A DNA stretch of 39,285 bases from an uncultured Chthoniobacterales bacterium (lineage in GTDB: Bacteria > Actinomycetota > Acidimicrobiia > Acidimicrobiales > SHLQ01). Position 1 is the stretch's first letter. Every line of letters begins with the position of its first letter. The DNA lies in NCBI GenBank assembly GCA_964196045.1, contig CAXMRH010000153.1, positions 1 through 39,285 of the forward strand, read 5' to 3'. A model generated the notes under the pieces. It was not told the DNA's origin and ran no database searches. It saw nothing but the letters and a program-made list of their open reading frames with translations. Made by a program: the position numbers and the translations under genes. Below are positions 13,198 to 38,591 of this stretch, one piece after another.

Positions 13198-13647
13198 ATG
13201 TCTGACGCAGTTCTCACACTCATGAAATTCGGGCTACTGCTCGCGCTGTATCTCTTCTTCGCGTGGGTTTTGTGGTCAGCCTTCAACCAGCTTCGGCGGA
13301 GTCCCGTGGCGGTCGCACCAATAACGGCGCAACCACGGTTCGGGTCCACTAGCAACTCGGTGCGCGGGCAAATAGCGATTCTCGAACCGCCCGAGCTTGC
13401 CGGAGCGGTGATGACGATTGGCGATGAGTTGACGATCGGGCGAGCTGCCGCGTGCACCCTGACATTGGACGACACCTATGTCTCCCAACTACATGCCAGC
13501 ATTGTCTGGCGTGATCGCCAGTACCTCGCCGAAGACACCGGCTCGACGAACGGAACATTCGTGAACCGTGAGCGCCTCGTGACTCCTGTCGTGCTCCGGC
13601 CCGGCGACCGCGTACAAATTGGAAGTACGGTGCTTGAGTTCTCATGA
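13198..13647 (+). CDS. fhaB: FhaB/FipA-like protein (N-terminal TM plus FHA domain)
   Basis: 149 aa with a hydrophobic N-terminus (LMKFGLLLALYLFFAWVLW) and an FHA pattern (IGRAAACTLTLDDTYVSQLHA...STNGTFVN). Confidence 0.85.
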   Translation: MSDAVLTLMKFGLLLALYLFFAWVLWSAFNQLRRSPVAVAPITAQPRFGSTSNSVRGQIAILEPPELAGAVMTIGDELTIGRAAACTLTLDDTYVSQLHASIVWRDRQYLAEDTGSTNGTFVNRERLVTPVVLRPGDRVQIGSTVLEFS

Positions 13648-13699
13648 GCTGTAGGCAACCCACCACTAACGGCGTGCGACCGACGGAAGAAGCACCACA

Positions 13700-14485
13700 A
13701 TGAGCACAACCAGACTTCGCTGGGGGCTGCGTTCCGACGTCGGCATGGTGCGCCGTGTGAACCAAGACGCCGCGATGGCGAACGGCACGCTCTTTGCTGT
13801 TGCCGATGGAATGGGCGGCCACCGTGGCGGCGAGGTCGCGGCGGAGATCGCGGCGGGGCACTTCCGGATCGTCGAACAGGTTCTCACCATCGACGAACTC
13901 GAGCGAGCAGTTGTCGCTGCCAACGAGCTGATCAGGGCACGGGCCGCAGCCGATCCCGATCTGACCGGCATGGGAACAACGATCGTTGCGATGGGAGTCC
14001 TCACCGACACAGAGCCCGACAGCCCACTCCAGCTCGGGGCGGTGAACGTGGGTGATAGCCGCTTGTACCTTTACGAGGAGGGCGAACTCTCACAGGTCTC
14101 CGTCGATCACAGCCTCGTAGGCGAGCTGACACGCGCTGGCCAACTCACTGAAGAAGAAGCGGCTCGACACCCCCAACGAAACGTAGTAACGCGTGCCCTT
14201 GGGGCCGAACAGCAGGTACTCGTCGATAGTTGGACGCTCCCAGCACGACTCGGACAGCGCTACCTGATGTGCTCGGATGGGCTCGTTAACGAGGTCAGCG
14301 ACCAAGGTGTCCGCGGAGTTCTCGAAGACGTCGACGATCCCGAGGCTGCAGCGGGACGGCTGGTCGACATGGCGAATCGATCCGGGGGCCGGGACAACAT
14401 CACGGTCCTGATCCTTGACATCGTCGACAGTGCGCACTCCACCCCGGACGCTTCGCCATGCGATCCCGCCGAAACCACGAGTTAG
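13700..14485 (+). CDS. pstP: PP2C-family Ser/Thr phosphatase (PstP-like, catalytic domain only)
   Basis: Matches include FAVADGMGGHRGGEVAAE and DNITVLILD. At 261 aa it has no C-terminal TM or extracellular segment. It overlaps the next gene by 28 nt. Confidence 0.9.
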   Translation: MSTTRLRWGLRSDVGMVRRVNQDAAMANGTLFAVADGMGGHRGGEVAAEIAAGHFRIVEQVLTIDELERAVVAANELIRARAAADPDLTGMGTTIVAMGVLTDTEPDSPLQLGAVNVGDSRLYLYEEGELSQVSVDHSLVGELTRAGQLTEEEAARHPQRNVVTRALGAEQQVLVDSWTLPARLGQRYLMCSDGLVNEVSDQGVRGVLEDVDDPEAAAGRLVDMANRSGGRDNITVLILDIVDSAHSTPDASPCDPAETTS

Positions 14486-15786
14486 TACTCCTCGCCGCGG
14501 CGGCCGCGATCACCGCGGGAGCGTACGCACTAGCGAGCCTCGGACGGACAGCGTCAATTCCCGCGGACTTGTTGCCGTTCTTCGCCGTCGTACTTGGGTT
14601 GTTGCTCGTGGCACACCTGGTACTTCGCCGCTTCGCACCGCTGGCCGACCCCACGATTCTCCCAGTTGTCGCGCTATTGAACGGTCTCGGCTACGTGTTC
14701 ATCGTGCGCTTGGCGAACGACATCGGCGACGCGGAGTCCCTCCCCGGGCAGCAGGCGACGTGGACCGCAGTAGGTATCGCCGCGTTCACCGCGACCTTGA
14801 TTCTTGTGCCGAGGATCAAGGTCCTGGACAAGTACCGCTACCTGGCCGCGATCACGGGAATCGTGCTTCTGATCTTGCCGCTCATGCCGGTGATCGGGCG
14901 GGAGGTGAACTCCGCTCGGATCTGGGTTCGCTTCGGGCCGATCAACTTTCAACCGGGGGAGTTTGCGAAGATCGCCCTGGCCGTCTTCATCGCTAGCTAC
15001 TTAGCGGAGAAGCGGGAGATCATGCTCGACGCACGCTTCCGCGTTGGACCGTTCAGCCTTCCAGAAGCGAAACATCTCGCGCCGGTGATGGCTGCGTGGG
15101 GTGCGTCGCTCGTCGTAATGGTCGCCGAGAAGGACCTCGGATCCTCATTGCTGTTGTTCCTGTTGGTCATCGTGATGCTGTGGGTGGCGACTGCTCGCAC
15201 CAGCTATCTGGTAACCGGACTGGGCCTGTTCGCGATCGGAGGATGGGCCGCATCGAAACAGTTCGGTCACGTCCAAGATCGCTTCGACATCTGGCTTGAT
15301 CCGTGGGCCGACCCGGATGGGGTGGGCTTTCAACCGGTCGAGGCCAGTTTCGCTCTCGCCAACGGTGGTCTCACAGGCACCGGCCCGGGTCGCGGTGAGC
15401 CGTATCGAATTCCCGAGGTCGAAACCGACTTTATCTTCGCGGCTATTGGCGAAGAGCTGGGTTTGGTTGGCTCGGTGGGAATTCTGATCGCCTTCGTCGT
15501 CATTGTCACCTCGGGGCTACGGATTGCGATTGGCACCCGAGACGACTTCGGCAAGCTGCTCGCAGCCGCACTGTCGGCTCTGATTGGTCTACAAGCCTTC
15601 ATCATCATCGGGGGGATCATCCGAATCGTGCCGCTCACAGGAATCACGTTGCCGTTCGTGAGCTATGGAGGCAGCTCGCTTGTCGCGAATTACGTACTGG
15701 TTGCCCTGCTGTTGCGGATTTCACACGACGGCGCCACGCGCCCCGATATTGCGTTGGATCCAGCCGACGCGCTCGTGACGACATGA
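14458..15786 (+). CDS. rodA: FtsW/RodA/SpoVE-family peptidoglycan glycosyltransferase
   Basis: 442-aa polytopic ORF with PGEFAKIALAVFIASYL, TDFIFAAIGEELGLVG and GITLPFVSYGGSS. Confidence 0.9.
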   Translation: MRSRRNHELVLLAAAAAITAGAYALASLGRTASIPADLLPFFAVVLGLLLVAHLVLRRFAPLADPTILPVVALLNGLGYVFIVRLANDIGDAESLPGQQATWTAVGIAAFTATLILVPRIKVLDKYRYLAAITGIVLLILPLMPVIGREVNSARIWVRFGPINFQPGEFAKIALAVFIASYLAEKREIMLDARFRVGPFSLPEAKHLAPVMAAWGASLVVMVAEKDLGSSLLLFLLVIVMLWVATARTSYLVTGLGLFAIGGWAASKQFGHVQDRFDIWLDPWADPDGVGFQPVEASFALANGGLTGTGPGRGEPYRIPEVETDFIFAAIGEELGLVGSVGILIAFVVIVTSGLRIAIGTRDDFGKLLAAALSALIGLQAFIIIGGIIRIVPLTGITLPFVSYGGSSLVANYVLVALLLRISHDGATRPDIALDPADALVTT

Positions 15787-15787
15787 G

Positions 15788-17341
15788 TTGGAAGTCCTCG
15801 TGAACCGTCAGATCTTGCGCCTGGGCGTGGGGCTTATGGCCGCCTACCTGGTGCTGTTCGTCCAGCTCAACAGGATTCAGGTGTTCGGAGCCGAACGCCT
15901 CGACACCCATCCGTCGAACAGCCGTCCCCTCGTTGAAGATTTCGGCGCACCCCGCGGGGAAATTCGAGCCGCCGACGGGACCGTGCTCGCTCGGTCGGTC
16001 GACTTGAAAGACGGCGCCTTCGAGCGCCAGCGCGAGTATCCGCTCGGGGAGCTGTTCGCCGAAGTGACCGGGTTCCTGTCCTTTGATGCGGGTTCTGACG
16101 GCCTCGAACAGACGTGGGATGAGGAACTCCGCGGCGATCAGAACGAACTGGAAGATGGCCTTCAGGAGCTTCTCGGTGGCGAAGCGACCACAGCCGATGT
16201 GGTGACGACATTGTCCGTCGAGGTGCAAACGGCCGCTCGCGACGCCTTGGGCGAACGGCGAGGCTCGGTGGTCGTGCTCGACCCGCAGTCCGGGGCAGTC
16301 CTCGCCATGTGGTCATGGCCGACGTATGACCCGAACCCGCTCGCGTCCACCAGCAACACCATCGCGAAGTCGGCGAGACGGGCACTTCTCGCCGACCCGA
16401 TAAACCCCTTGCTTCCTCGTACGACGAGAGAGCTGTTCTTCCCCGGATCGACCTTCAAAGTTGTTACTGCGGCCGCCGCCCTCGAAACGAATGCCGTCGA
16501 ACTCGACACGCCGGTCTTCTCGATCACCGAGAGCTACACGCCACCGCTGACCTCGAATCCGCTGTCCAACTTCGGGGGTGCACAGTGTGGGGGAGCGCTA
16601 CGTGAACTCATTCGGCGGTCGTGTAATGCAGGCATGGCCCAGTTGGCTGTTGAGCTGCTCGGTGCCGATCGACTCGTCGAAACCGCGCAGAACTTCGGCT
16701 TCGGATCGGTCCCGCCCATTGGGCTCCCTGGCGTTGTGGCGTCGGTGATGCCCGATGATTTTGGTGCCGATCTGGGAACGGCGGTCGAGGTGGAACCCGA
16801 GCTCTTGGCGCAGCTGGACGAGGATCCAATGGTCATGTTGACCGACGACATGCCATCGCTCGCTCAGGCGGCGGTGGGCCAGTTCGAGGTCAAGGCGACT
16901 CCGCTTCAGATGGCGCTCGTCGTCGCTGCGATCGCCAACGATGGCGACGTCCCCAATCCACACGTGGTGCAAAGGGTCATCGATGCCGATGGCTCGATCG
17001 TGCATCAGGCGGATCTCGAAGCGTGGCGGCAGGCAATGTCACAAGAAACATCGAGAGAGCTACGTAGTGCCATGTTGGCTGTTGTGGAGTCGGGGACGGC
17101 GCAGGGCCTTGCCATCGACGGATTGGTGGTCGGCGCCAAGACCGGGACGGCGCAGATCGGCGCAGACATCGATGCCACACACGCCTGGTTGATTGCCTTC
17201 GCAGGTGAACGAATCGATCGCCCGACGGTTGTCATCGCCGTCATGATCGAGGCGGATGAAGCCGTTGGTGAACAGACCGGAGGTCGTGTGGCGGGCCCAG
17301 TCGGCCTCGAGGTGCTCGAGGCATGGAACGCGCAGCGTTGA
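15788..17341 (+). CDS. pbpA: Class B penicillin-binding protein (PbpA-like transpeptidase)
   Basis: Contains STFK (PGSTFKVV), SxN (RSCNAG) and KTGT (GAKTGTAQ). A GTG start at 15800, preceded by ggaag, is an equally plausible alternative to TTG at 15788. Confidence 0.9.
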   Translation: MEVLVNRQILRLGVGLMAAYLVLFVQLNRIQVFGAERLDTHPSNSRPLVEDFGAPRGEIRAADGTVLARSVDLKDGAFERQREYPLGELFAEVTGFLSFDAGSDGLEQTWDEELRGDQNELEDGLQELLGGEATTADVVTTLSVEVQTAARDALGERRGSVVVLDPQSGAVLAMWSWPTYDPNPLASTSNTIAKSARRALLADPINPLLPRTTRELFFPGSTFKVVTAAAALETNAVELDTPVFSITESYTPPLTSNPLSNFGGAQCGGALRELIRRSCNAGMAQLAVELLGADRLVETAQNFGFGSVPPIGLPGVVASVMPDDFGADLGTAVEVEPELLAQLDEDPMVMLTDDMPSLAQAAVGQFEVKATPLQMALVVAAIANDGDVPNPHVVQRVIDADGSIVHQADLEAWRQAMSQETSRELRSAMLAVVESGTAQGLAIDGLVVGAKTGTAQIGADIDATHAWLIAFAGERIDRPTVVIAVMIEADEAVGEQTGGRVAGPVGLEVLEAWNAQR

Positions 17342-17398
17342 TACTCATGTGCGGCTTGATCTGCGTTCTGTGGTCCTTGTCGATATCCTTTACCGGTT

Positions 17399-19531
17399 AT
17401 GTCTGACGCCCCCTATGAAGTCCTCGCTGGCCGGTACGAGCTGCACCGTCAGCTCGCGACCGGTGGCAGCGCCGACGTCTTCCTCGCACGAGACCAGCTT
17501 CTGAACCGTCCGGTCGCAGTGAAGGTGCTCAACGCCACACTGTCCGAGGACCAGGATTTCGTGGAGCGCCTCCGCCGAGAGGCCCAGCTCGTCGCAAGCC
17601 TCAACCACCAGAACATCGTCGGGGTGTTCGATCAGGGTGAACAAGATGGCGCCCCGTTCATCGTCATGGAGTACGTGGACGGGCGCAGTCTCGCGGACAT
17701 CTTGCGTAGCGAGGGCCGCTTGCACCCGGATCGTGCAGCCACGATCGCCGTTGATGTGGCCGCCGCCCTCGACGCTGCCCATCGACAGGGCATGGTCCAC
17801 ATGGACGTCAAGCCGGGCAACGTGCTCATCACTTCCGAAGGCCAGGTGAAGCTTGCAGACTTTGGCATAGCGAAGGCGCTGAACGAGGGCTCCGAGACGG
17901 ACCTGACCGCCGAAGGCGGAACGGTGATGGGCACGGCCACGTATCTGTCCCCCGAGCAGGCCCAAGGACAGAAGGTCGGGCCGCGTAGCGATGTGTACTC
18001 GCTGGCGGTTGTGCTCTACGAGATGATGACCGGTCGTCCGCCATTCATCGGCGACACGCCAGTAGAAATCGCACGCAAACACGTCGAGGAAGCTCCACAA
18101 GCGCCACATCGTCTGGGGGTCGAGATAGCGCAGTCGTTGGAAGCGATCACACTGAAAGGCTTGGCCAAGAGTCCGGTTAATCGGTACCCGTCGGTGCGCG
18201 ATTTCGCAGCCGACCTGAAGCGGTATCTGGCCGGTGCTCACAGCCTGACCGACAACGCCCCGTCGGGCACCAAGCCTGCAGCGGCCGCCGCTGCACCCCC
18301 GATTGTTCGAGCTGTGACCGGACGGTCCACCGCACCGGAGCAGAAGGACCAAACGGTTCTCATACCCGCGACGCCGGGCGCCGCGCCTGTGGCACGACCC
18401 CCCCAAGGTGGTCTACCGCGCCAAGCCGCAGCTCCAGCCCGAGCACCGAGGAAGCCAGATCCCGCCGACCTCGAGCGTCGCCCGGTCGTTGTACGAAGCG
18501 ACGACACGTGGAAGCGCAATGTCTTGTTTTTCGTTGCGTTGTGCATCTTGTTACTTCTGCTCGGCTTCTTGGCCCGAGCGTTCGTCGACGTGTTACGTGA
18601 CGACGACAGCACCATCGACGAAACCCCGACAACGGGCGAGACCGTCACACTTCCGAATTTCACGAACTTTGATCGTGATCAGGCAATCACGTTGATCGAG
18701 AATCAAGGCCTCGTACCAGAGATCGAGTTCGCTCCTAACAACGACGTCGCCGATGGCCGTGTCTTCCGCCAGGATCCTGTGGCGGGGGCGATCGTCGAGC
18801 TTGGTTCCACGGTCAAGATCACTGTCAGCGAAGCAGAGGGCAAGGTCGAAGTGCCGACGCTCGTCGACCTTACGCGAGAAGAGGCGGAACGAACGCTCCG
18901 CCGACTTGGGTTCACGCCCGATGTGCAGGAGGTCGACAACGACTTCTTCGGACCTGGCTCGGTTATCAGCCAGGAGCCACTCCCTGGAGTAAGTGCGGAT
19001 CGTGGGTCGGTCGTCTTCCTTCAAGTGTCGCTCGGGTTCTCGGAACGAACGGTTCCTGATCTTGCAGGGCAAACATTGAACGAAGCTCTTGCCAAGTTGT
19101 TCGATCTGGATTTCCGAATCACCCAGGTCGAGGAACCAGATCCTGAGGTCGAGGAAGGTCTTGTGCTTCGGACAGAACCGGCTGCGGGTTCGTTGTTGCG
19201 GGGCCGTGAGATCGTGACGGTGTATGTGTCGACAGGGGTCGCCCGCGTGCCCGTGCCTTCGGTCATCGGGTTGTTGGCAGATTCCGCTCGCCAACAGCTG
19301 ACCGCGAGTGGCTTCGAGGTGCAGATCGACTTCATCGAGGTAGAGGATCCCGCCGACATCAACAAGGTGATCGACCAGACACCCCCGGCGAATATCGAGC
19401 TGCGCGAAGGGGAGTCCGTGCGGATCATCGTTGGTCTGGAACCGCCGCCCGAAGAGACGACGACTACAACGACCGAGGCCGCCACGACGACCACGACGTC
19501 GACCACCACCACGACCGCCGCGCCCGGCTGA
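17399..19531 (+). CDS. pknB: Ser/Thr protein kinase PknB with four PASTA repeats
   Basis: Hanks kinase motifs are present (VAVKVL, HMDVKPGNVL, DFGIA, SPEQA). A TM (LFFVALCILLLLLGFLA) follows, then four PASTA-like units of about 65 aa and a poly-Thr C-terminal tail. Confidence 0.95.
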   Translation: MSDAPYEVLAGRYELHRQLATGGSADVFLARDQLLNRPVAVKVLNATLSEDQDFVERLRREAQLVASLNHQNIVGVFDQGEQDGAPFIVMEYVDGRSLADILRSEGRLHPDRAATIAVDVAAALDAAHRQGMVHMDVKPGNVLITSEGQVKLADFGIAKALNEGSETDLTAEGGTVMGTATYLSPEQAQGQKVGPRSDVYSLAVVLYEMMTGRPPFIGDTPVEIARKHVEEAPQAPHRLGVEIAQSLEAITLKGLAKSPVNRYPSVRDFAADLKRYLAGAHSLTDNAPSGTKPAAAAAAPPIVRAVTGRSTAPEQKDQTVLIPATPGAAPVARPPQGGLPRQAAAPARAPRKPDPADLERRPVVVRSDDTWKRNVLFFVALCILLLLLGFLARAFVDVLRDDDSTIDETPTTGETVTLPNFTNFDRDQAITLIENQGLVPEIEFAPNNDVADGRVFRQDPVAGAIVELGSTVKITVSEAEGKVEVPTLVDLTREEAERTLRRLGFTPDVQEVDNDFFGPGSVISQEPLPGVSADRGSVVFLQVSLGFSERTVPDLAGQTLNEALAKLFDLDFRITQVEEPDPEVEEGLVLRTEPAAGSLLRGREIVTVYVSTGVARVPVPSVIGLLADSARQQLTASGFEVQIDFIEVEDPADINKVIDQTPPANIELREGESVRIIVGLEPPPEETTTTTTEAATTTTTSTTTTTAAPG

Positions 19532-19554
19532 CGAACGAGCGAGTTTCGATACCG

Positions 19555-20130
19555 CTAGACGGTTCGGGCGAGGAAGTTCTGGAGCAAGTCGTGACCTGAT
19601 GCGGTCAGGATCGATTCTGGATGAAATTGCACGCCCTCGATGTCGTGCTCGGCGTGGCGAAGGCCCATGACCAGGCCGTCACTCGATTCCGCAGTGATCT
19701 CGAGGTCGTCGGGCACCGAGTCGCGCTCGACTATGAGCGAGTGATAACGGGTTGCTTCGAGCGGATTGGGAAGGCCGACGAATACTCCAGAATTGGTGTG
19801 GCTGATCATCGACGTCTTGCCATGCATAACCTCGGGCGCACGGCTGACAGTGCCGCCGTAGACCTCTCCGATGCACTGCATGCCAAGACACACACCGAAA
19901 ACGGGCCGTTTCCCCGGTGAATCCGCTATCAGAGCGCTTGAAATACCAGCTTCGCTCGGGGTCCCTGGCCCAGGGCTGATCAACACACCATCAGGATTCA
20001 TAGCATCGACGCCAGCGAGGTCGATCTCGTCATGGCGTTTCACAATGGGGTTCGCGCCGAGCTGGCCGAGGTACTGGACCAGGTTGTAGACGAACGAGTC
20101 GTAGTTGTCGATCACCAAGATGTCGCTCAT
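19555..20130 (-). CDS. trpG: Glutamine amidotransferase component II of anthranilate / aminodeoxychorismate synthase
   Basis: 191 aa with GVCLGMQ (nucleophile Cys) and VQFHPES. Its position next to pknB and crgA is as in other actinobacteria. Confidence 0.9.
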   Translation of the reverse strand: MSDILVIDNYDSFVYNLVQYLGQLGANPIVKRHDEIDLAGVDAMNPDGVLISPGPGTPSEAGISSALIADSPGKRPVFGVCLGMQCIGEVYGGTVSRAPEVMHGKTSMISHTNSGVFVGLPNPLEATRYHSLIVERDSVPDDLEITAESSDGLVMGLRHAEHDIEGVQFHPESILTASGHDLLQNFLARTV

Positions 20131-20216
20131 GAACCCACAACGCTAGCCAACTCATCTCACTTGCCACCGCGTTCACCGACGCAGGGCTTAAACCCAAAAC
20201 GCACTAGACTCGAAGG

Positions 20217-20498
20217 ATGTCGAGTCCGAAGAAGCGCCGGGTGCAAGGCGGGCGCGTCACCCCCAAGGGGACGCAGCCGCACAACGCAAAGTCTGTCGAG
20301 ACGCTGCATCATGTCAGCGATGAGCCGAGTGCTCCGTGGGTGACGTGGGTTCTCTTCGGATTACTCGCCCTAGGCATGCTCGTGATCTTCTTGAACTACA
20401 CGAAGCTGGTTCCTGGCGGCGAAACCCACAACGGGTTCACGCTGCTCGGCCTCGGGTTTATTCTTGGCGGGATTATCACCGCCACTCGCTTGCGGTAG
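20217..20498 (+). CDS. crgA: Cell division protein CrgA
   Basis: 93 aa with a basic N-terminus (SSPKKRRVQGGRVTPKG) and two TM helices (WVTWVLFGLLALGMLVIFLNY, LLGLGFILGGIITATRL). It is in the conserved syntenic position. Confidence 0.85.
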   Translation: MSSPKKRRVQGGRVTPKGTQPHNAKSVETLHHVSDEPSAPWVTWVLFGLLALGMLVIFLNYTKLVPGGETHNGFTLLGLGFILGGIITATRLR

Positions 20499-25695: not shown

Positions 25696-26628
25696 TCAGT
25701 TGTTATGGCTGGGGCGGCCGTTGCCGTCTTGCGGGGTGCCGAACATGTTCGAGTTCAGGCGAGCATCGTTGCAAATCTGACGCATGACATCGCCGAGGCC
25801 TTCTGGATCATCGCTCTGCGATCCGTGGGGTCCAAGGACCCAACCTTCGGCAACGCCGACACGATCGCCCACGACATCGAAGACTCGTCCGGTGATGCTC
25901 GCGGACTCGGAAGACGCAAGCCAGGTAGCCACGTTGGCGATCCAGCGAGGGTCCATGCCGCCGATCTGCTCTTCAGTGAGATCCGAGAAGCCAGGCAGGT
26001 CTTTGGTCATGCGGGTGTAGGCCGCAGGTGCGATGGCGTTGCAGGTGACTCCGTAGTTTGCGAGCTCCATGGCAACGATGGTTGTGAAGGAGGCAATGCC
26101 TGCCTTGGCTGCGCCGTAGTTGGACTGGCCGACGTTGCCGTAGATGCCCGAAGGGGACGAGGTGTTGATGATTCTGGCATCTGGTTGATTGCCGGCCTTG
26201 GACTGTTCACGCCAGTACTTTGCTGCGTGGTGGGTGGGGCCGAAGGTGCCCTTCAGGTGCACGGCGATGACCGCGTCCCAATCGGATTCCTCCATCTTGA
26301 AGATCATTCGGTCGCGCAAGATACCTGCGTTGTTGATGAGGATGTCGAGCCCACCGAAGGTGTCGATTGCTTGGTGGATCATGGCCTCTGCCTGACCGAA
26401 GTCAGCAACATTGGAGCCATTGACGACGGCCTCGCCCCCGAGCGCAGCGATCTCGTCGACCACGGACTGCGCTGGCGTGACGTCGCCGCCAGCACCGGCC
26501 ATGTCTCCGCCGAGATCGTTCACGACTACCTTTGCACCCTTGCTGGCGAGCGATAGTGCGTGCTCGCGGCCGATCCCTCGACCAGCCCCAGTAACGATCG
26601 CCACTCGACCCTCAACCAAACCGCTCAT
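25696..26628 (-). CDS. SDR-family oxidoreductase (classical NAD(P)-binding type)
   Basis: 310 aa with TGAGRGIG, NNAG and the S...YxxxK triad (SNYGAAKAG). Confidence 0.9.
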   Translation of the reverse strand: MSGLVEGRVAIVTGAGRGIGREHALSLASKGAKVVVNDLGGDMAGAGGDVTPAQSVVDEIAALGGEAVVNGSNVADFGQAEAMIHQAIDTFGGLDILINNAGILRDRMIFKMEESDWDAVIAVHLKGTFGPTHHAAKYWREQSKAGNQPDARIINTSSPSGIYGNVGQSNYGAAKAGIASFTTIVAMELANYGVTCNAIAPAAYTRMTKDLPGFSDLTEEQIGGMDPRWIANVATWLASSESASITGRVFDVVGDRVGVAEGWVLGPHGSQSDDPEGLGDVMRQICNDARLNSNMFGTPQDGNGRPSHNN

Positions 26629-33923: not shown

Positions 33924-34063
33924 CACGCCCGCTTTCGGGAGTGACGGCCAGGCGATCTGCGGCACACGGCAGGCCTCGCTGAGAGCTGCTGCCTTCCGGC
34001 CCTGACCCGGTTCACGAGCTCCCGTTGCACAGGACCCGACCGTCACACCCCAAAGCGGGCGTG
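33924..34063. repeat. 140-bp element bounded by 24-nt imperfect inverted repeats (MITE-like or a long-stem structured RNA)
   Basis: The left arm is cacgcccgctttcgggagtgacgg (33924-33947). The right arm is ccgtcacaccccaaagcgggcgtg (34040-34063). They are complementary at 22 of 24 positions. The element lies in the 417-bp spacer between the divergent mscL and the HHDH-like gene. Confidence 0.6.
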
Positions 34064-34158: not shown

Positions 34159-34905
34159 ATGCATGAGAAGCCAGTCGCAATCATCTCCAACGCGAAGCAC
34201 TACGTCGGTCCTGAACTAGCCGTGACGATGGCCTCAGCCGGGTACGACCTGGTCCTTGGTGAGCCATCTCCGGAGACGGTTGAGGCGGTCACGGCTGCTG
34301 GCGCGGACAGCTGGGTCGTGGATGGAGCGCTCGATCTATCCGACCCTGCTTCGGCTCCTCGTTTGGTCGACATGGCCATGGATGCGTACGCGCGGATCGA
34401 CTCAGCTGTGTTCTTCAGTGGCGAGATCGTGCTCGGCAAGTTCCTTGATGCGACCGATGCTGATTTCGAGAAGGTCGTGTCAGGGAATTTCGAGGCGGCG
34501 TTTCGGTCATTGCGGGCCTTCGTGCATCCGATGGTCGAGGCCGGCAGCGGACAGATCTTGGCCATCACCAGCGCTTCGGGAATCAAGGTCACGCCGATGG
34601 CTTCTCTGTATTCCTCGACGCGCGCCGCCGCCAACATGTTGGTGCGCAACGTTGCCGCCGAGGTCGCCCGAAGTGGTGTGCAGGTAAATGCGGTCGGAAC
34701 CAACTTCATGGATTTCCCGATGTTCCGTGCCGCCATGGGTGCCGATGATCCCGAAATCATGGCCAAGATCGAGAAGAACGTGCCCATGGGGCGACTCGGC
34801 ACGATGACCGAGTTCGCACAGTTCTGTCGTGTGTTTCTCGATGGCACCTCGCGTTTTCAGACAGGCCAGGTCGTCGGGTTCGACGGAGGTTGGTCCGCGC
34901 AGTGA
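34159..34905 (+). CDS. SDR-fold protein with halohydrin dehalogenase (HHDH) signatures
   Basis: 248 aa. The N-terminus AIISNAKHYVGPEL (S10-x4-Y15-x-G17) replaces the TGxxxGxG cofactor motif. The catalytic region ITS138-x12-Y151-SST-R155 gives S-x12-Y-x3-R, with Arg in place of the SDR Lys. The N-terminus resembles HheC AIVTNVKHFGG, recalled from memory. Confidence 0.65.
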   Translation: MHEKPVAIISNAKHYVGPELAVTMASAGYDLVLGEPSPETVEAVTAAGADSWVVDGALDLSDPASAPRLVDMAMDAYARIDSAVFFSGEIVLGKFLDATDADFEKVVSGNFEAAFRSLRAFVHPMVEAGSGQILAITSASGIKVTPMASLYSSTRAAANMLVRNVAAEVARSGVQVNAVGTNFMDFPMFRAAMGADDPEIMAKIEKNVPMGRLGTMTEFAQFCRVFLDGTSRFQTGQVVGFDGGWSAQ

Positions 34906-35468
34906 AGGCCGGAATCCTCGAGACCGAACGTCTGGCCATCCGACCATGGCGCGTCCACGAGGCGGAGATTCTTTTTGCGATTCGCAGTGACATCGGAGTC
35001 GCGAAGTGGTTGGACCCGCCCGAGCCCTGGACCGGCCTAGAACAAGCCGTTGATGCGATCGTCGGATACAGCCGACGAATCGAGACTGAACCTCCGCTCG
35101 GCGATTGGGCAGTCGTGCCGAACGAGCTCGGCCATCCCGTGGGCTCAGTCTCGCTACACAAGCTCCCCGAGGATGGCTTGTTTGCGACTGGTTGGTATCT
35201 CCACCCCGACGCCTTCGGGAACGGCTATGCCCCCGAGGCAGCGAAGGCCATGATCGCCGCTGGGTTCGCCGGCGGGCTAACCGAGATATGGGCCGTCATG
35301 TTCGAGCAGAACGAGGCTTCTGCGCGTGTAGCCACGAAGGCGGGGATGACCGACCTGGGCCTGCGCGATGACCCTTGGTACGGAACAGTGGAGCACCCGC
35401 AGTCTCGAATGTTCTGCGCCTACGCAGAGGGCTCGACCGGGTGGAGTAGTCCGTCGGTGACGTCGTAG
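34902..35468 (+). CDS. GNAT-family N-acetyltransferase (RimJ/RimL-like)
   Basis: The N-terminus ILETERLAIRPW is typical of the RimJ-like GNAT subgroup, and GYAPEAAKAMI matches the acetyl-CoA binding region. The GTG at 34902 overlaps the upstream TGA (GTGA). Confidence 0.75.
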   Translation: MKAGILETERLAIRPWRVHEAEILFAIRSDIGVAKWLDPPEPWTGLEQAVDAIVGYSRRIETEPPLGDWAVVPNELGHPVGSVSLHKLPEDGLFATGWYLHPDAFGNGYAPEAAKAMIAAGFAGGLTEIWAVMFEQNEASARVATKAGMTDLGLRDDPWYGTVEHPQSRMFCAYAEGSTGWSSPSVTS

Positions 35469-36018: not shown

Positions 36019-37313
36019 CTATACCGGAATTTCCGTTCCATCGGGGCGCAAGGTGTGCCAGGACCCATAATGGTCTCGATAGATCGTGAACCCCTTTTGT
36101 TTCCAACGATTATGTTTCCCGCACAGCGGCGCCCCGTTGCCAGGGTTGGTTCTGCCTTCTCTCGAGTGTTCGAGAACGTGGTCGTTCTCGCACTTCGATA
36201 CCGGCGTGCAACAGCCAGGCCACACACAATGGGCATGAGATAACTTCACGGCGAGTCGAGCGCCGCCGGTGAACCGTCGAGCGGCCCCTTGGTCGGTGAC
36301 CATGCTCTTGGCATCGATCAACACCCGCCGAATGCGGCCCACGATCGACATGTCGAACATCTCGGTCGCGTCGACGGGTATTCCGTCGATAATCTGGCAC
36401 CCGATTGTGTCGGTCTCGATGCAATCGCGTGGGTCGCTGGGAGCTGTCGGGGCGCGAGCGTCGCCCTTGAACTCACCGTCGTACTCGGCGATGTCATCCT
36501 CGTCTTCGAGGTCGCTGCTGTCGTCTTCTTCGCCGAAGAACTTCTCGGCCATGTCTTCGAAGGTGTCGGCGTCCCACATGATGTCGTGCACGAAGTCGGC
36601 AGGCACTGCGCTGTTGAGGTTGGCCGCAGCATCGATGAAGCTCTGCCAAAGTGCATCGGCTCGACGCTTTTGGATCGTGCGGGGCAGGTGCTCGCTCGTC
36701 GCCGCATCGCCATGTTCTGCCCGTGCCTTCTCCCAGTCGGCGATCGTCTCGGCGTCGAGGCAACGATCGAACACCTCGAAGATCTGGAGGCCCTGCATCG
36801 ACGCGAAGCTCGCCACGAAGTCCTACGTGGTGTCGAAGTTCTGGGTCATGCGGACGTTGCGGTCTTCGTGTGCCCGCTCGTTTGGCGGCGTGGGTTCGCA
36901 TGCACCAAGCTCAGCGACCTGATCTGGTCGGTGCCCAACGCTCCCGACCGATAGGCCATGCCAATGTCTGGGCACGTGTCGGTCAACCTTGCTACCCGAT
37001 CCGGGGCAGCAGCTTCGCCGTTGCTCAGCTTGGCGTGATGTCGCACTATTGCCGTGGAGTGGCCGTCACCGAGGTGGAAGCGGCACTCCTCGATGGCCGA
37101 CATCACCTCGACGGCAGCGTGATCGGCGAGCCGTCGAACCTGCTCTACCTCTTGAATCAGAGTGATCGAATCACGAGCGTTCGCTGGTTCGATTCCGGCT
37201 GATTGCAGCGCAGCGAAACCAGCGACAATCTGCTCGATCGCCACCCCAATCTCTCTGTTCGCTACCCGTGACCCCATACGAACAAGTGTACGATTAGTGT
37301 ATGACAACGACAT
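36019..37313 (-). pseudogene. DUF222 / HNH endonuclease gene (13E12-repeat type) broken by a frameshift and an in-frame TAG
   Basis: The N-terminal ORF 36846-37313 has a DUF222-like pattern (IQEVEQVRRLADHAAVEVM...GALGTDQIRSLSLVHANPR). The C-terminal ORF 36019-36816 carries the HNH motif (CVWPGCCTPVSKCENDHVLEHSREGRTNPGNGAPLCGKHNRWK). The two are in different frames. Hand translation of the junction shows a third-frame bridge ending in TAG at about 36825. Confidence 0.65.
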
Positions 37314-37597: not shown

Positions 37598-38419
37598 CTA
37601 CGTCGGAATGAGTGTGTTTGCGAAGATCTGCCAGGCCAGCACGCTCTTGGCCACGAAGCTGAGCATGATGTAGACCCGCTCGCCGTGGAGGTAGTCGGCC
37701 CAGCGGCCCTTGCCTCGGTACTGCAGCCATTGGTTGATGGCGAATGTGTTGAAGAAGAAGAAGATCGACGCGATGATGCCGTAGACAAATCCGGGAGGGC
37801 CCTCTCCTCCTTCTTGGCTCACGTTGAACCAGAGCGGAACGAGGATGGCCAGCCAGGGGCCGATGCCGGCTACGCAGCCCATCCAGAACGGTGACCACCA
37901 CACGGTTTTGCGCTTGACGTCGTCGGTCGAGTTGACCATTTCCATGATCCAGCCGAAAAAGATCATTGAGACGTTGGCGAAGGCCAGTCCGATGAGTGCA
38001 GCCAGGTCGGTGATTCCCGTCGTCGCTGCGATCAACACCATCATCAGCGTGGACGACAGCGCGTATTCGATCCAGCGGAAGCGATTGCGCCCATGGCGGA
38101 GCTCGCTCTTGTACTTCGGGAACACGACGAGTGCGATCAGGAAGTGGAAGAGGGCCGACAGCAACGAGAACGCAGCAACCCCAGCGGCCAGCGGAATCCC
38201 GAAGAACTCGTTGAGGGCTCCATCTGCGAGGGGGGTTCCAGGAGGTCCGCTGATGTTGAACCCGCTCACGGGGAGCTCAAAGTCGAGATCGCCCAGCACG
38301 ATCATCGCTAGGCCGGTCACGAGGTGAAGGACACCAGCTCCCAAGTTCAGCTTGCGGAGGCGGCTTGCATTGTCGTCGGTGAGCTCGACGACCTTTCGGT
38401 CGAAGTCGATGTTTGGCAT
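37598..38419 (-). CDS. Heliorhodopsin
   Basis: Seven-TM protein with blocks matching my recollection of heliorhodopsin 48C12: NISGPPGT, LSALFHF, FRWIEYALSSTLMMVLIA (counterion Glu), NVSMIFFGW, PFWMGCVAGIGPW, PGFVYGIIASIFFFFNTFAINQWLQYRGKGRWADYLHGERVYIMLSFVAKSVLAWQIF. The Schiff-base Lys codon is at 37646-37648. The start is taken at ATG 38419 (MPNIDFD); the ORF opens at GTG 38512. Confidence 0.85.
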   Translation of the reverse strand: MPNIDFDRKVVELTDDNASRLRKLNLGAGVLHLVTGLAMIVLGDLDFELPVSGFNISGPPGTPLADGALNEFFGIPLAAGVAAFSLLSALFHFLIALVVFPKYKSELRHGRNRFRWIEYALSSTLMMVLIAATTGITDLAALIGLAFANVSMIFFGWIMEMVNSTDDVKRKTVWWSPFWMGCVAGIGPWLAILVPLWFNVSQEGGEGPPGFVYGIIASIFFFFNTFAINQWLQYRGKGRWADYLHGERVYIMLSFVAKSVLAWQIFANTLIPT

Positions 38420-38591
38420 GGGTGTGGTTCTAGACGCCAGCGCCACAGGATGAATGATCAAGGGGGCCCGGATCCCAGCTGGACCTGAACTGAGGCCGAC
38501 TCGTCGAGCCACTGCAACACTGTCGCTCGCTTGTAACGTGGTGGGCTGCTTCGATGCTGAGCTGGCGCGTGCTGGCGAAGGGTCGTTGTCT

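Follow-up and report, generated by a model that had tools for sequence, protein, structure and literature searches.

A probable G-type halohydrin dehalogenase gene among housekeeping genes of an uncultured Acidimicrobiia bacterium

The gene and its catalytic motifs

The stretch of DNA analysed here (the window) covers positions 1 to 39,285 of contig CAXMRH010000153.1, from an uncultured bacterium placed by GTDB in the Acidimicrobiales. Our subject is one open reading frame (ORF) on its plus strand, identified from the ORF list and its translation, which runs from an ATG start to a TGA stop and encodes 248 residues (Table 1). Its product is very probably a cofactor-independent halohydrin dehalogenase (HHDH; also haloalcohol dehalogenase or halohydrin hydrogen-halide lyase) of the G subtype, belonging to the short-loop branch with AbHheG and the protein of PDB entry 7wkq. 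A sequence-only reading of the same DNA had placed an ORF with the short-chain dehydrogenase/reductase (SDR) fold and HHDH signature motifs here, and its position, length and both motifs are all borne out.

The G+C content by codon position (GC1 0.62, GC2 0.47, GC3 0.72) is the pattern of a true high-GC gene, and the value for the whole gene is 0.604, compared with 0.611 for the window. The N-terminus, MHEKPVA, is common to the homologues. Comparison with five orthologues gave ratios of non-synonymous to synonymous substitution (dN/dS) of 0.036–0.11, with 0.036 for the least saturated pair (locus L081, dS 0.50). The gene is thus under strong purifying selection, and on the strength of the 0.036 value we regard it as functional. 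Two antisense ORFs that overlap it, 34200-34847 and 34507-34947, were dismissed as shadow ORFs of a high-GC gene.

Both HHDH motifs were located by regular expression and aligned with the characterised enzymes, using an HheC reference sequence that was checked to be identical to PDB 1pwx_A. In the BLASTP alignment with HheC, S10/Y15/G17 of the first motif pair with T7/F12/G14, and S138/Y151/R155 of the second with S132/Y145/R149; R155 therefore occupies the catalytic Arg position, where SDRs have Lys, as the sequence-only reading had proposed. In the definitions used here (PMC11976700, PMC4989007), motif 1 lines the nucleophile or halide pocket and stands in place of the TGxxxGxG of SDRs (PMC11976700). 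No glycine-rich dinucleotide motif of the TGxxxGxG type was found by regular expression in the 248-residue protein, the sole loose G-x-G pattern being GQVVGFDG at residue 236. By alignment, the equivalents of motif 1 are T-x4-Y-x-G in HheG, S-x4-Y-x-G in AbHheG, and G-x4-Y-x-G in 7wkq.

The conservation of these residues was followed in the 120 nearest homologous proteins (63-96% identity) and in the best 80 of at least 213 species genomes with relatives, one genome per species and almost all of them Acidimicrobiia/Acidimicrobiales metagenome-assembled genomes (MAGs). The pattern S-x12-Y-x3-R is unchanged in 120/120 proteins and 80/80 genomes; S138, Y151, R155, and G17 are invariant among the 120, and Y15 is near-invariant. 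A third element, the loop G180–P187, carries the G-type sequence GTN[FY]MDFP. It is identical (GTNFMDFP) in AbHheG and 7wkq and reads GTNYMDFP in HheG, with G174-P-N-Y-L-H-S-E-D-S-P as the HheC counterpart, and its residues G180, N182, D185, and F186 are invariant in the homologue alignment (A1). By homology to HheC (structure 1PWX), we take this loop to be the halide loop.

Table 1. Coordinates of the gene, its motifs, and other features of the window
Feature	Position	Strand	Evidence or remarks
Probable G-type halohydrin dehalogenase gene, SDR fold, without cofactor motif	34159..34905	+	ORF, Pfam, PDB phmmer, AlphaFold2/Foldseek, dN/dS
Motif 1, S10-N-A-K-H-Y15-V-G17	34186..34209	+	Regular expression; aligned with HheC, HheG, AbHheG, 7wkq
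Motif 2, catalytic triad S138-x12-Y151-x3-R155	34570..34623	+	Regular expression; aligned with HheC triad
Loop G180-T-N-F-M-D-F-P187, putative nucleophile-binding loop	34696..34719	+	Homology to HheC
GNAT (Acetyltransf_3, PF13302)	34902..35468	+	Pfam, 4.5e-24; alternative TTG start at 34890
Small signal recognition particle (SRP, 4.5S) RNA gene	33943-34041	-	Rfam RF00169, 74.2 bits, E 6.8e-15
Two adjacent ORFs in different frames	36019-36816 and 36846-37313	-	No Pfam or NCBIfam match
Heliorhodopsin gene	37598-38512	-	Pfam PF18761, E 9.9e-90
Canonical SDR, 310 residues, TGAGRGIG and Ser...YxxxK triad	25696-26628	-	NCBIfam PRK07791, 379.5 vs cutoff 373 bits
Cell-division/signalling cluster: FHA, PP2C phosphatase, FtsW/RodA, penicillin-binding protein, PknB-type kinase (four PASTA repeats), anthranilate/p-aminobenzoate-type glutamine amidotransferase, CrgA	13198-20498		

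Family assignment and the first residue of motif 1

Pfam placed the protein in generic SDR families only (adh_short_C2, 5.9e-35; adh_short, 1.6e-26), and together with the structure model and the Foldseek search described below this identifies an SDR-type Rossmann fold. The PDB search was far more specific. With phmmer, the eight best distinct sequences are all G-type HHDHs, led by 8h8y (8.9e-83), 8hqp (8e-81), and 7wkq (1.5e-78); the five Ilumatobacter HheG entries follow at 1e-59 to 2.7e-57, and the best NAD-dependent SDR reaches 5.6e-22, about 60 orders of magnitude behind the HHDH structures. Sequence comparison thus points to homology, not chance, as the source of the likeness, with E 8.9e-83 to a crystallised HHDH. 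Identity is 56.7% to AbHheG, 54.7% to 7wkq, 48% to HheG, and 27% to HheC. Since HHDH subtypes share <30% identity (PMC4989007), the values of 48-57% to HheG, AbHheG, and 7wkq agree with the loop sequence in pointing to the G subtype.

The structural comparison gave the same ranking. An AlphaFold2 monomer model built with 69 homologues has a mean predicted local distance difference test (pLDDT) score of 90.1, a predicted template-modelling (pTM) score of 0.89, and alternating beta and alpha elements. The 25 best PDB chains in Foldseek are all G-type HHDHs, with template-modelling (TM) scores of 0.91 to 8h8y, on which the model superposes, and 0.90 to HheG. NAD-bound SDRs come next, with an E-value about ten orders of magnitude weaker, and the matches are exclusively of the SDR fold. 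In both searches, therefore, verified HHDHs rank ahead of every NAD(P)-dependent SDR, and the proposal that the protein is an HHDH and not a member of the NAD(P)-dependent group is supported. The PDB relatives are all deposited with at least four chains, which may hint at a homotetramer (dimer of dimers) for the window protein.

In an exhaustive search, only 29 of 1.84 billion cluster representatives came out at E<=1e-30. Among the 60 best representatives, those of complete length down to ~1e-29 have S-x12-Y-x3-R and lack TGxxxGxG, one of them with a different Ser–Tyr spacing; the few without the HHDH motif are truncated sequences, and SDRs with YxxxK and TGxxxGxG start at ~1e-28. From the position of this boundary, the query lies deep inside a compact, motif-defined family. 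No HHDH-specific NCBIfam model matched, all matches falling below cutoff (best 119 bits vs cutoff 215), and it is because NCBIfam offers no model that this protein reaches that the homologues are named as SDRs in public databases.

A neighbour-joining tree (100 bootstraps) was calculated from the window protein, a 26-sequence sample of the 120 nearest homologues, and the reference enzymes AbHheG, 7wkq, HheG, and HheC. The window protein falls inside the G-type group, from which HheC is set apart by a long branch, and forms one clade with the sampled homologues at 97% bootstrap, with AbHheG, 7wkq, and HheG outside; the branching order among the G-type groups has bootstraps of only 20-27. The phylogeny with characterised HHDHs that had been proposed was thus realised for the G-type enzymes and for HheC, the one reference of another subtype whose sequence was verified against the PDB. 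The group from Acidimicrobiia (Ilumatobacter) that the sequence-only reading named is the G subtype, to which the protein belongs. About 13 residues are missing after beta2, including the equivalent of the HheG loop 39-47, as in AbHheG and 7wkq. Loop-less HheG homologues are already on record (8/32, the loop being present in 24/32; Fig. S1 of PMC11536340), and by sequence comparison the missing loop assigns the window protein to the short-loop branch without removing it from the G subtype.

The first residue of motif 1 requires separate discussion. The alignment shows Ser at this position in AbHheG and Gly in 7wkq, natural variants that were pointed out by Staar et al. (PMC11976700). In the same work HheC T7S and HheG T13S stay active, and only Ser replacements of the motif-1 Thr had detectable activity. 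Ser at this position can therefore be taken as compatible with activity, by analogy with AbHheG and the Thr-to-Ser mutants, and because such variants and mutants are on record we do not treat the Thr as defining for HHDHs. The Ser that the sequence-only reading had singled out is present; as a novelty it does not stand, since the crystallised and active AbHheG already has Ser, and 7wkq Gly.

The wider branch departs further from Thr. Of the 120 nearest proteins, 82 have Ala at position 1 of motif 1, 23 have Ser, 8 Asn, and 3 Thr; the corresponding figures for the 80 species-representative genomes are Ala 56, Ser 10, Cys 4, and Thr 3. Thr is so scarce that the published T-x4-[FY]-x-G mining filter would skip ~96% of the genes of this branch. 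This scarcity appears under-appreciated. We found nothing relevant in a literature search for work that mined HHDHs by relaxed motifs or similarity networks. The protein P0002 (VAIVANAKHYVG) is an example of a natural Ala-type homologue. Given that Thr-to-Ala mutants of HheC and HheG had no detectable activity, the natural Ala may reflect either compensation within the clade or an altered pocket; this puzzle is without bearing on the window protein, which carries Ser.

Genomic neighbourhood

The apparent 417-bp gap between the MscL and HHDH genes holds the SRP RNA gene, and ~117 bp remain before the HHDH start. Upstream of the gene, Rfam revealed no riboswitch and a sigma-70 consensus scan gave no match. 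Beyond the SRP RNA in this direction lie MscL, an ATP-binding cassette (ABC) exporter, and XseAB; in the other direction the HHDH gene is followed by the GNAT acetyltransferase gene, a beta-carbonic anhydrase gene, two unannotated ORFs, and the heliorhodopsin gene. The rest of the window is housekeeping in character, with the FHA-PP2C-FtsW-PBP-PknB cluster (PBP, penicillin-binding protein), CrgA, RF3, a polyprenyl synthase, and tRNAs.

A GTG at 34902-34904, in the reading frame of the GNAT ORF, overlaps the TGA stop of the HHDH gene (34903-34905). The resulting GTGA junction, which had been read as translational coupling, is real, with the TTG at 34890 as a possible alternative start, and the coupling is confined to a narrow lineage. 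Partners were searched for at the related loci by tblastn of the window neighbours, by a hidden Markov model of the GNAT orthologues run against all ORFs, and by clustering of all ORFs up to 3 kb away from the HHDH gene. A GNAT gene lies 3′ of the HHDH gene in 6/80 related loci. The two genes overlap by 4 nt (ATGA/GTGA) in the window and in L081, L005, and L006; in L001-L003 and L007 they stand 10-20 nt apart. The order XseA-ABC-MscL-HHDH-GNAT repeats only in the closest relatives, and no gene family within 3 kb of the HHDH gene is common to more than 13/81 loci. The idea of an HHDH-GNAT functional module as a general explanation was accordingly dropped; the coupling is lineage-specific and gives no family-wide hint at function. 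At locus L082, whose HHDH is 88% identical, the GNAT gene is absent and carbonic anhydrase comes straight after the HHDH gene, which suggests that GNAT was gained or lost at the spot between the two. In the window, the GNAT gene (plus strand, ending at 35468) and the beta-carbonic anhydrase gene (minus strand, ending at 35420) are convergent and overlap at their 3′ ends by 49 nt, 35420-35468.

Among the 35 ORFs scanned across the 39-kb window, none showed an epoxide hydrolase or alpha/beta-hydrolase domain. The sequence-only reading was thus right that none is adjacent, but this is the rule for HHDH genes and no exception: only two of them are known to lie in an operon with an epoxide hydrolase (PMC4989007).

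Several other features deserve mention. The cell-division/signalling cluster is typical of actinobacteria and supports an Actinomycetota origin of the window. At L001-L003, L009, and L010, heliorhodopsin homologues (68-85% identity) are found no more than a few kb from the HHDH gene, and this fits a light-exposed aquatic Acidimicrobiia lineage. The first of the two unannotated ORFs (36019-36816) contains, by eye, a Cys/His-rich HNH-like stretch, CVWPGC...CENDH...CGKHN, and homologues occur at 60% identity near the HHDH gene at L010 and L015; this may be a disrupted mobile HNH-type gene. Finally, a more distant group of G-type HHDH genes (54-57% identical), among loci L044-L075 (~13 MAGs, mainly of uncultured Acidimicrobiia), has a conserved neighbourhood of its own. 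It includes, upstream and on the opposite strand, an ORF resembling Zn-alcohol dehydrogenases and, downstream, further conserved ORFs, and it could be a hint at function in that lineage.

Proposed mechanism, alternatives, and comparison with characterised enzymes

By homology with HheC and HheG, Ser138 and Tyr151 would hydrogen-bond the substrate hydroxyl or the epoxide oxygen, with Tyr151 acting as catalytic base or acid and Arg155, at the SDR Lys position, presumably tuning its pKa. Where SDRs accommodate NAD(P), this protein would have a small anion pocket, lined by S10...Y15...G17 and the loop G180-P187. Vicinal haloalcohols and epoxides would be interconverted by reversible ring closure, and the main reaction would be expected, as in the G-type relatives, to be the opening of epoxides, including bulky or internal ones, by halide, azide, cyanide, nitrite, or cyanate. 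Characterised G-type enzymes hardly dehalogenate small beta-chloroalcohols and are good epoxide ring-openers with broad nucleophile promiscuity (PMC10099379), and a bias toward ring opening over small-chloroalcohol dehalogenation is expected for the window protein as well.

Several points weigh against the HHDH assignment or narrow it. The strict published form of motif 1, with Thr first, is departed from at Ser10. The clade of the window protein, at 97% support, contains no characterised enzyme, the nearest characterised relative of the protein is only 57% identical to it, and the clade has signatures of its own, namely an invariant W52 in SW[VT]VDG and the C-terminus G[FY]DGGWS. The genomic context supplies no catabolic partner. 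Activity, cofactor independence, the halide pocket, and with them the substrate range are argued from homology, and the term 'dehalogenase' may not describe the reaction of the protein in vivo.

This last point leads to the alternative that survives best, which we nevertheless hold to be unlikely. It retains the HHDH scaffold and triad and supposes a non-halide physiological reaction, for example the opening or forming of natural epoxides or other small O-heterocycles with a biological anion or, together with the GNAT protein, a reaction on an amino-alcohol product, with dehalogenation in vitro as a side activity. The poor performance of G-type enzymes on small beta-chloroalcohols and their promiscuity toward epoxides and nucleophiles (PMC10099379) speak for it, reviewers of the field hold other physiological functions of HHDHs to be possible (PMC4989007), and the gene sits amid housekeeping genes, keeps a vertical synteny among close relatives, and evolves under strong purifying selection; several relatives also share the 4-nt start/stop overlap with GNAT. 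Against this, no neighbour family is shared by more than 13/81 loci, GNAT is missing even from the 88%-identical relative, and we have no positive evidence for any particular alternative substrate.

A far less probable explanation is that the protein is an ordinary NAD(P)(H)-dependent SDR, as public databases have it, where the homologues are called 'SDR family NAD(P)-dependent oxidoreductase' or '3-oxoacyl-ACP reductase'. The exclusively generic Pfam matches and the weak NCBIfam matches to many SDR models would fit this, but the sequence strongly disfavours it: TGxxxGxG is absent, Arg replaces the catalytic Lys, no NCBIfam cutoff is reached, and true NAD-dependent SDRs score ~60 orders of magnitude worse than the HHDH crystal structures. 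The canonical SDR encoded at 25696-26628 displays what the cofactor motif looks like in the same genome, and the public names, assigned automatically, reflect that no HHDH-specific model exists. An SDR relic, decaying or non-functional, with HHDH-like motifs by chance, for which nothing speaks except the departure of the first motif from the published consensus, has a negligible probability and is refuted by conservation and selection, with an intact frame, the dN/dS values against five orthologues, a triad invariant in >120 homologous 90%-identity clusters, relatives encoded by at least 213 species genomes, and E 9e-83 to a characterised enzyme.

With the protein read as a G-type HHDH, the gene is a genuine but ordinary addition to the known members of the subtype, and none of it is categorically new. 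What is mildly new is a clade without characterised enzymes, in which the motif-1 Thr is mostly Ala. This clade comprises >120 protein clusters (90% identity) at 63-96% identity to the query, and would largely be skipped by T-x4-[FY]-x-G mining; automatic annotation labels its proteins NAD(P)-dependent SDRs. HHDHs are prized in biocatalysis as a route to chiral epoxides and beta-substituted alcohols, with the G-type enzymes being the ones to accept bulky internal epoxides, and the natural Ala set against inactive Thr-to-Ala mutants gives HHDH enzymologists a concrete question that can be tested. The housekeeping setting, in which no catabolic neighbours were found, adds to the evidence against a purely xenobiotic-degradation role of HHDHs. 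Taken jointly, the observations allow a tentative and rather improbable picture of a separate G-type lineage of mainly uncultured Acidimicrobiia, in which Ala is usual in motif 1, the gene is inherited vertically among core housekeeping genes, the anion pocket is compensated or altered, and the enzyme has a conserved role beyond xenobiotic haloalcohol catabolism. If this were true, the role might concern natural epoxides or organohalogens, or the use of a biological anion, and in the present sublineage it might be linked to the translationally coupled GNAT.

Comparison with the characterised enzymes places the window protein at increasing closeness to four of them. HheC of Agrobacterium radiobacter AD1 (PDB 1pwx), the mechanistic reference, shares the SDR fold, the presumed mechanism, and motif residues that align one to one; it is only 26-27% identical, belongs to another subtype, and differs further in its longer halide loop and in a C-terminal extension bearing W249. 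Its gene adjoins an epoxide hydrolase gene in a catabolic cluster, unlike the window gene.

HheG of Ilumatobacter coccineus (PDB 5o30, 6i9u/v/w, 7qy3; with HheG2 and HheG3) is of the same subtype and the same class, Acidimicrobiia, and is 48% identical, with Y-x-G in motif 1, the same triad, the GTNYMDFP loop, and the Foldseek TM score given above. It differs in the Thr of motif 1 and in the ~13 additional residues after beta2, whose dynamic loop 39-47 governs activity and enantioselectivity in HheG (PMC11536340).

The HHDH of PDB 7wkq, from an Acidimicrobiia bacterium, probably corresponds to HHDHamb (Wang et al. 2022, Angew Chem), an identification that we base on the DPAE linker named in PMC11536340 and on PMC11775713. 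At 54.7% identity it has the short-loop G-type architecture, triad, and nucleophile loop of the window protein, and differs in the Gly at the first position of motif 1, where the window protein has Ser. A narrow active site and N-selective nitrite attack are reported for it (PMC11775713), neither of which can be assumed for the window protein.

The closest match is AbHheG, from an Acidimicrobiia bacterium (PDB 8h8y; engineered variant 8hqp; Zhou et al. 2023, ACS Catal, as cited in PMC11976700). Unlike the window protein it is experimentally characterised, and it lies outside the 97% clade, with RIVPVTG where the clade has SW[VT]VDG and an AGGWA end in place of DGGWSAQ. The two share 56.7% identity in an alignment of 245 residues that is free of internal gaps, the AlphaFold2 model matches 8h8y at TM 0.91, triad spacing and the GTNFMDFP loop are identical, both are without the flexible loop 39-47 of HheG, and both carry Ser at the first position of motif 1 (SDTRYYVG in AbHheG, SNAKHYVG in the window protein).

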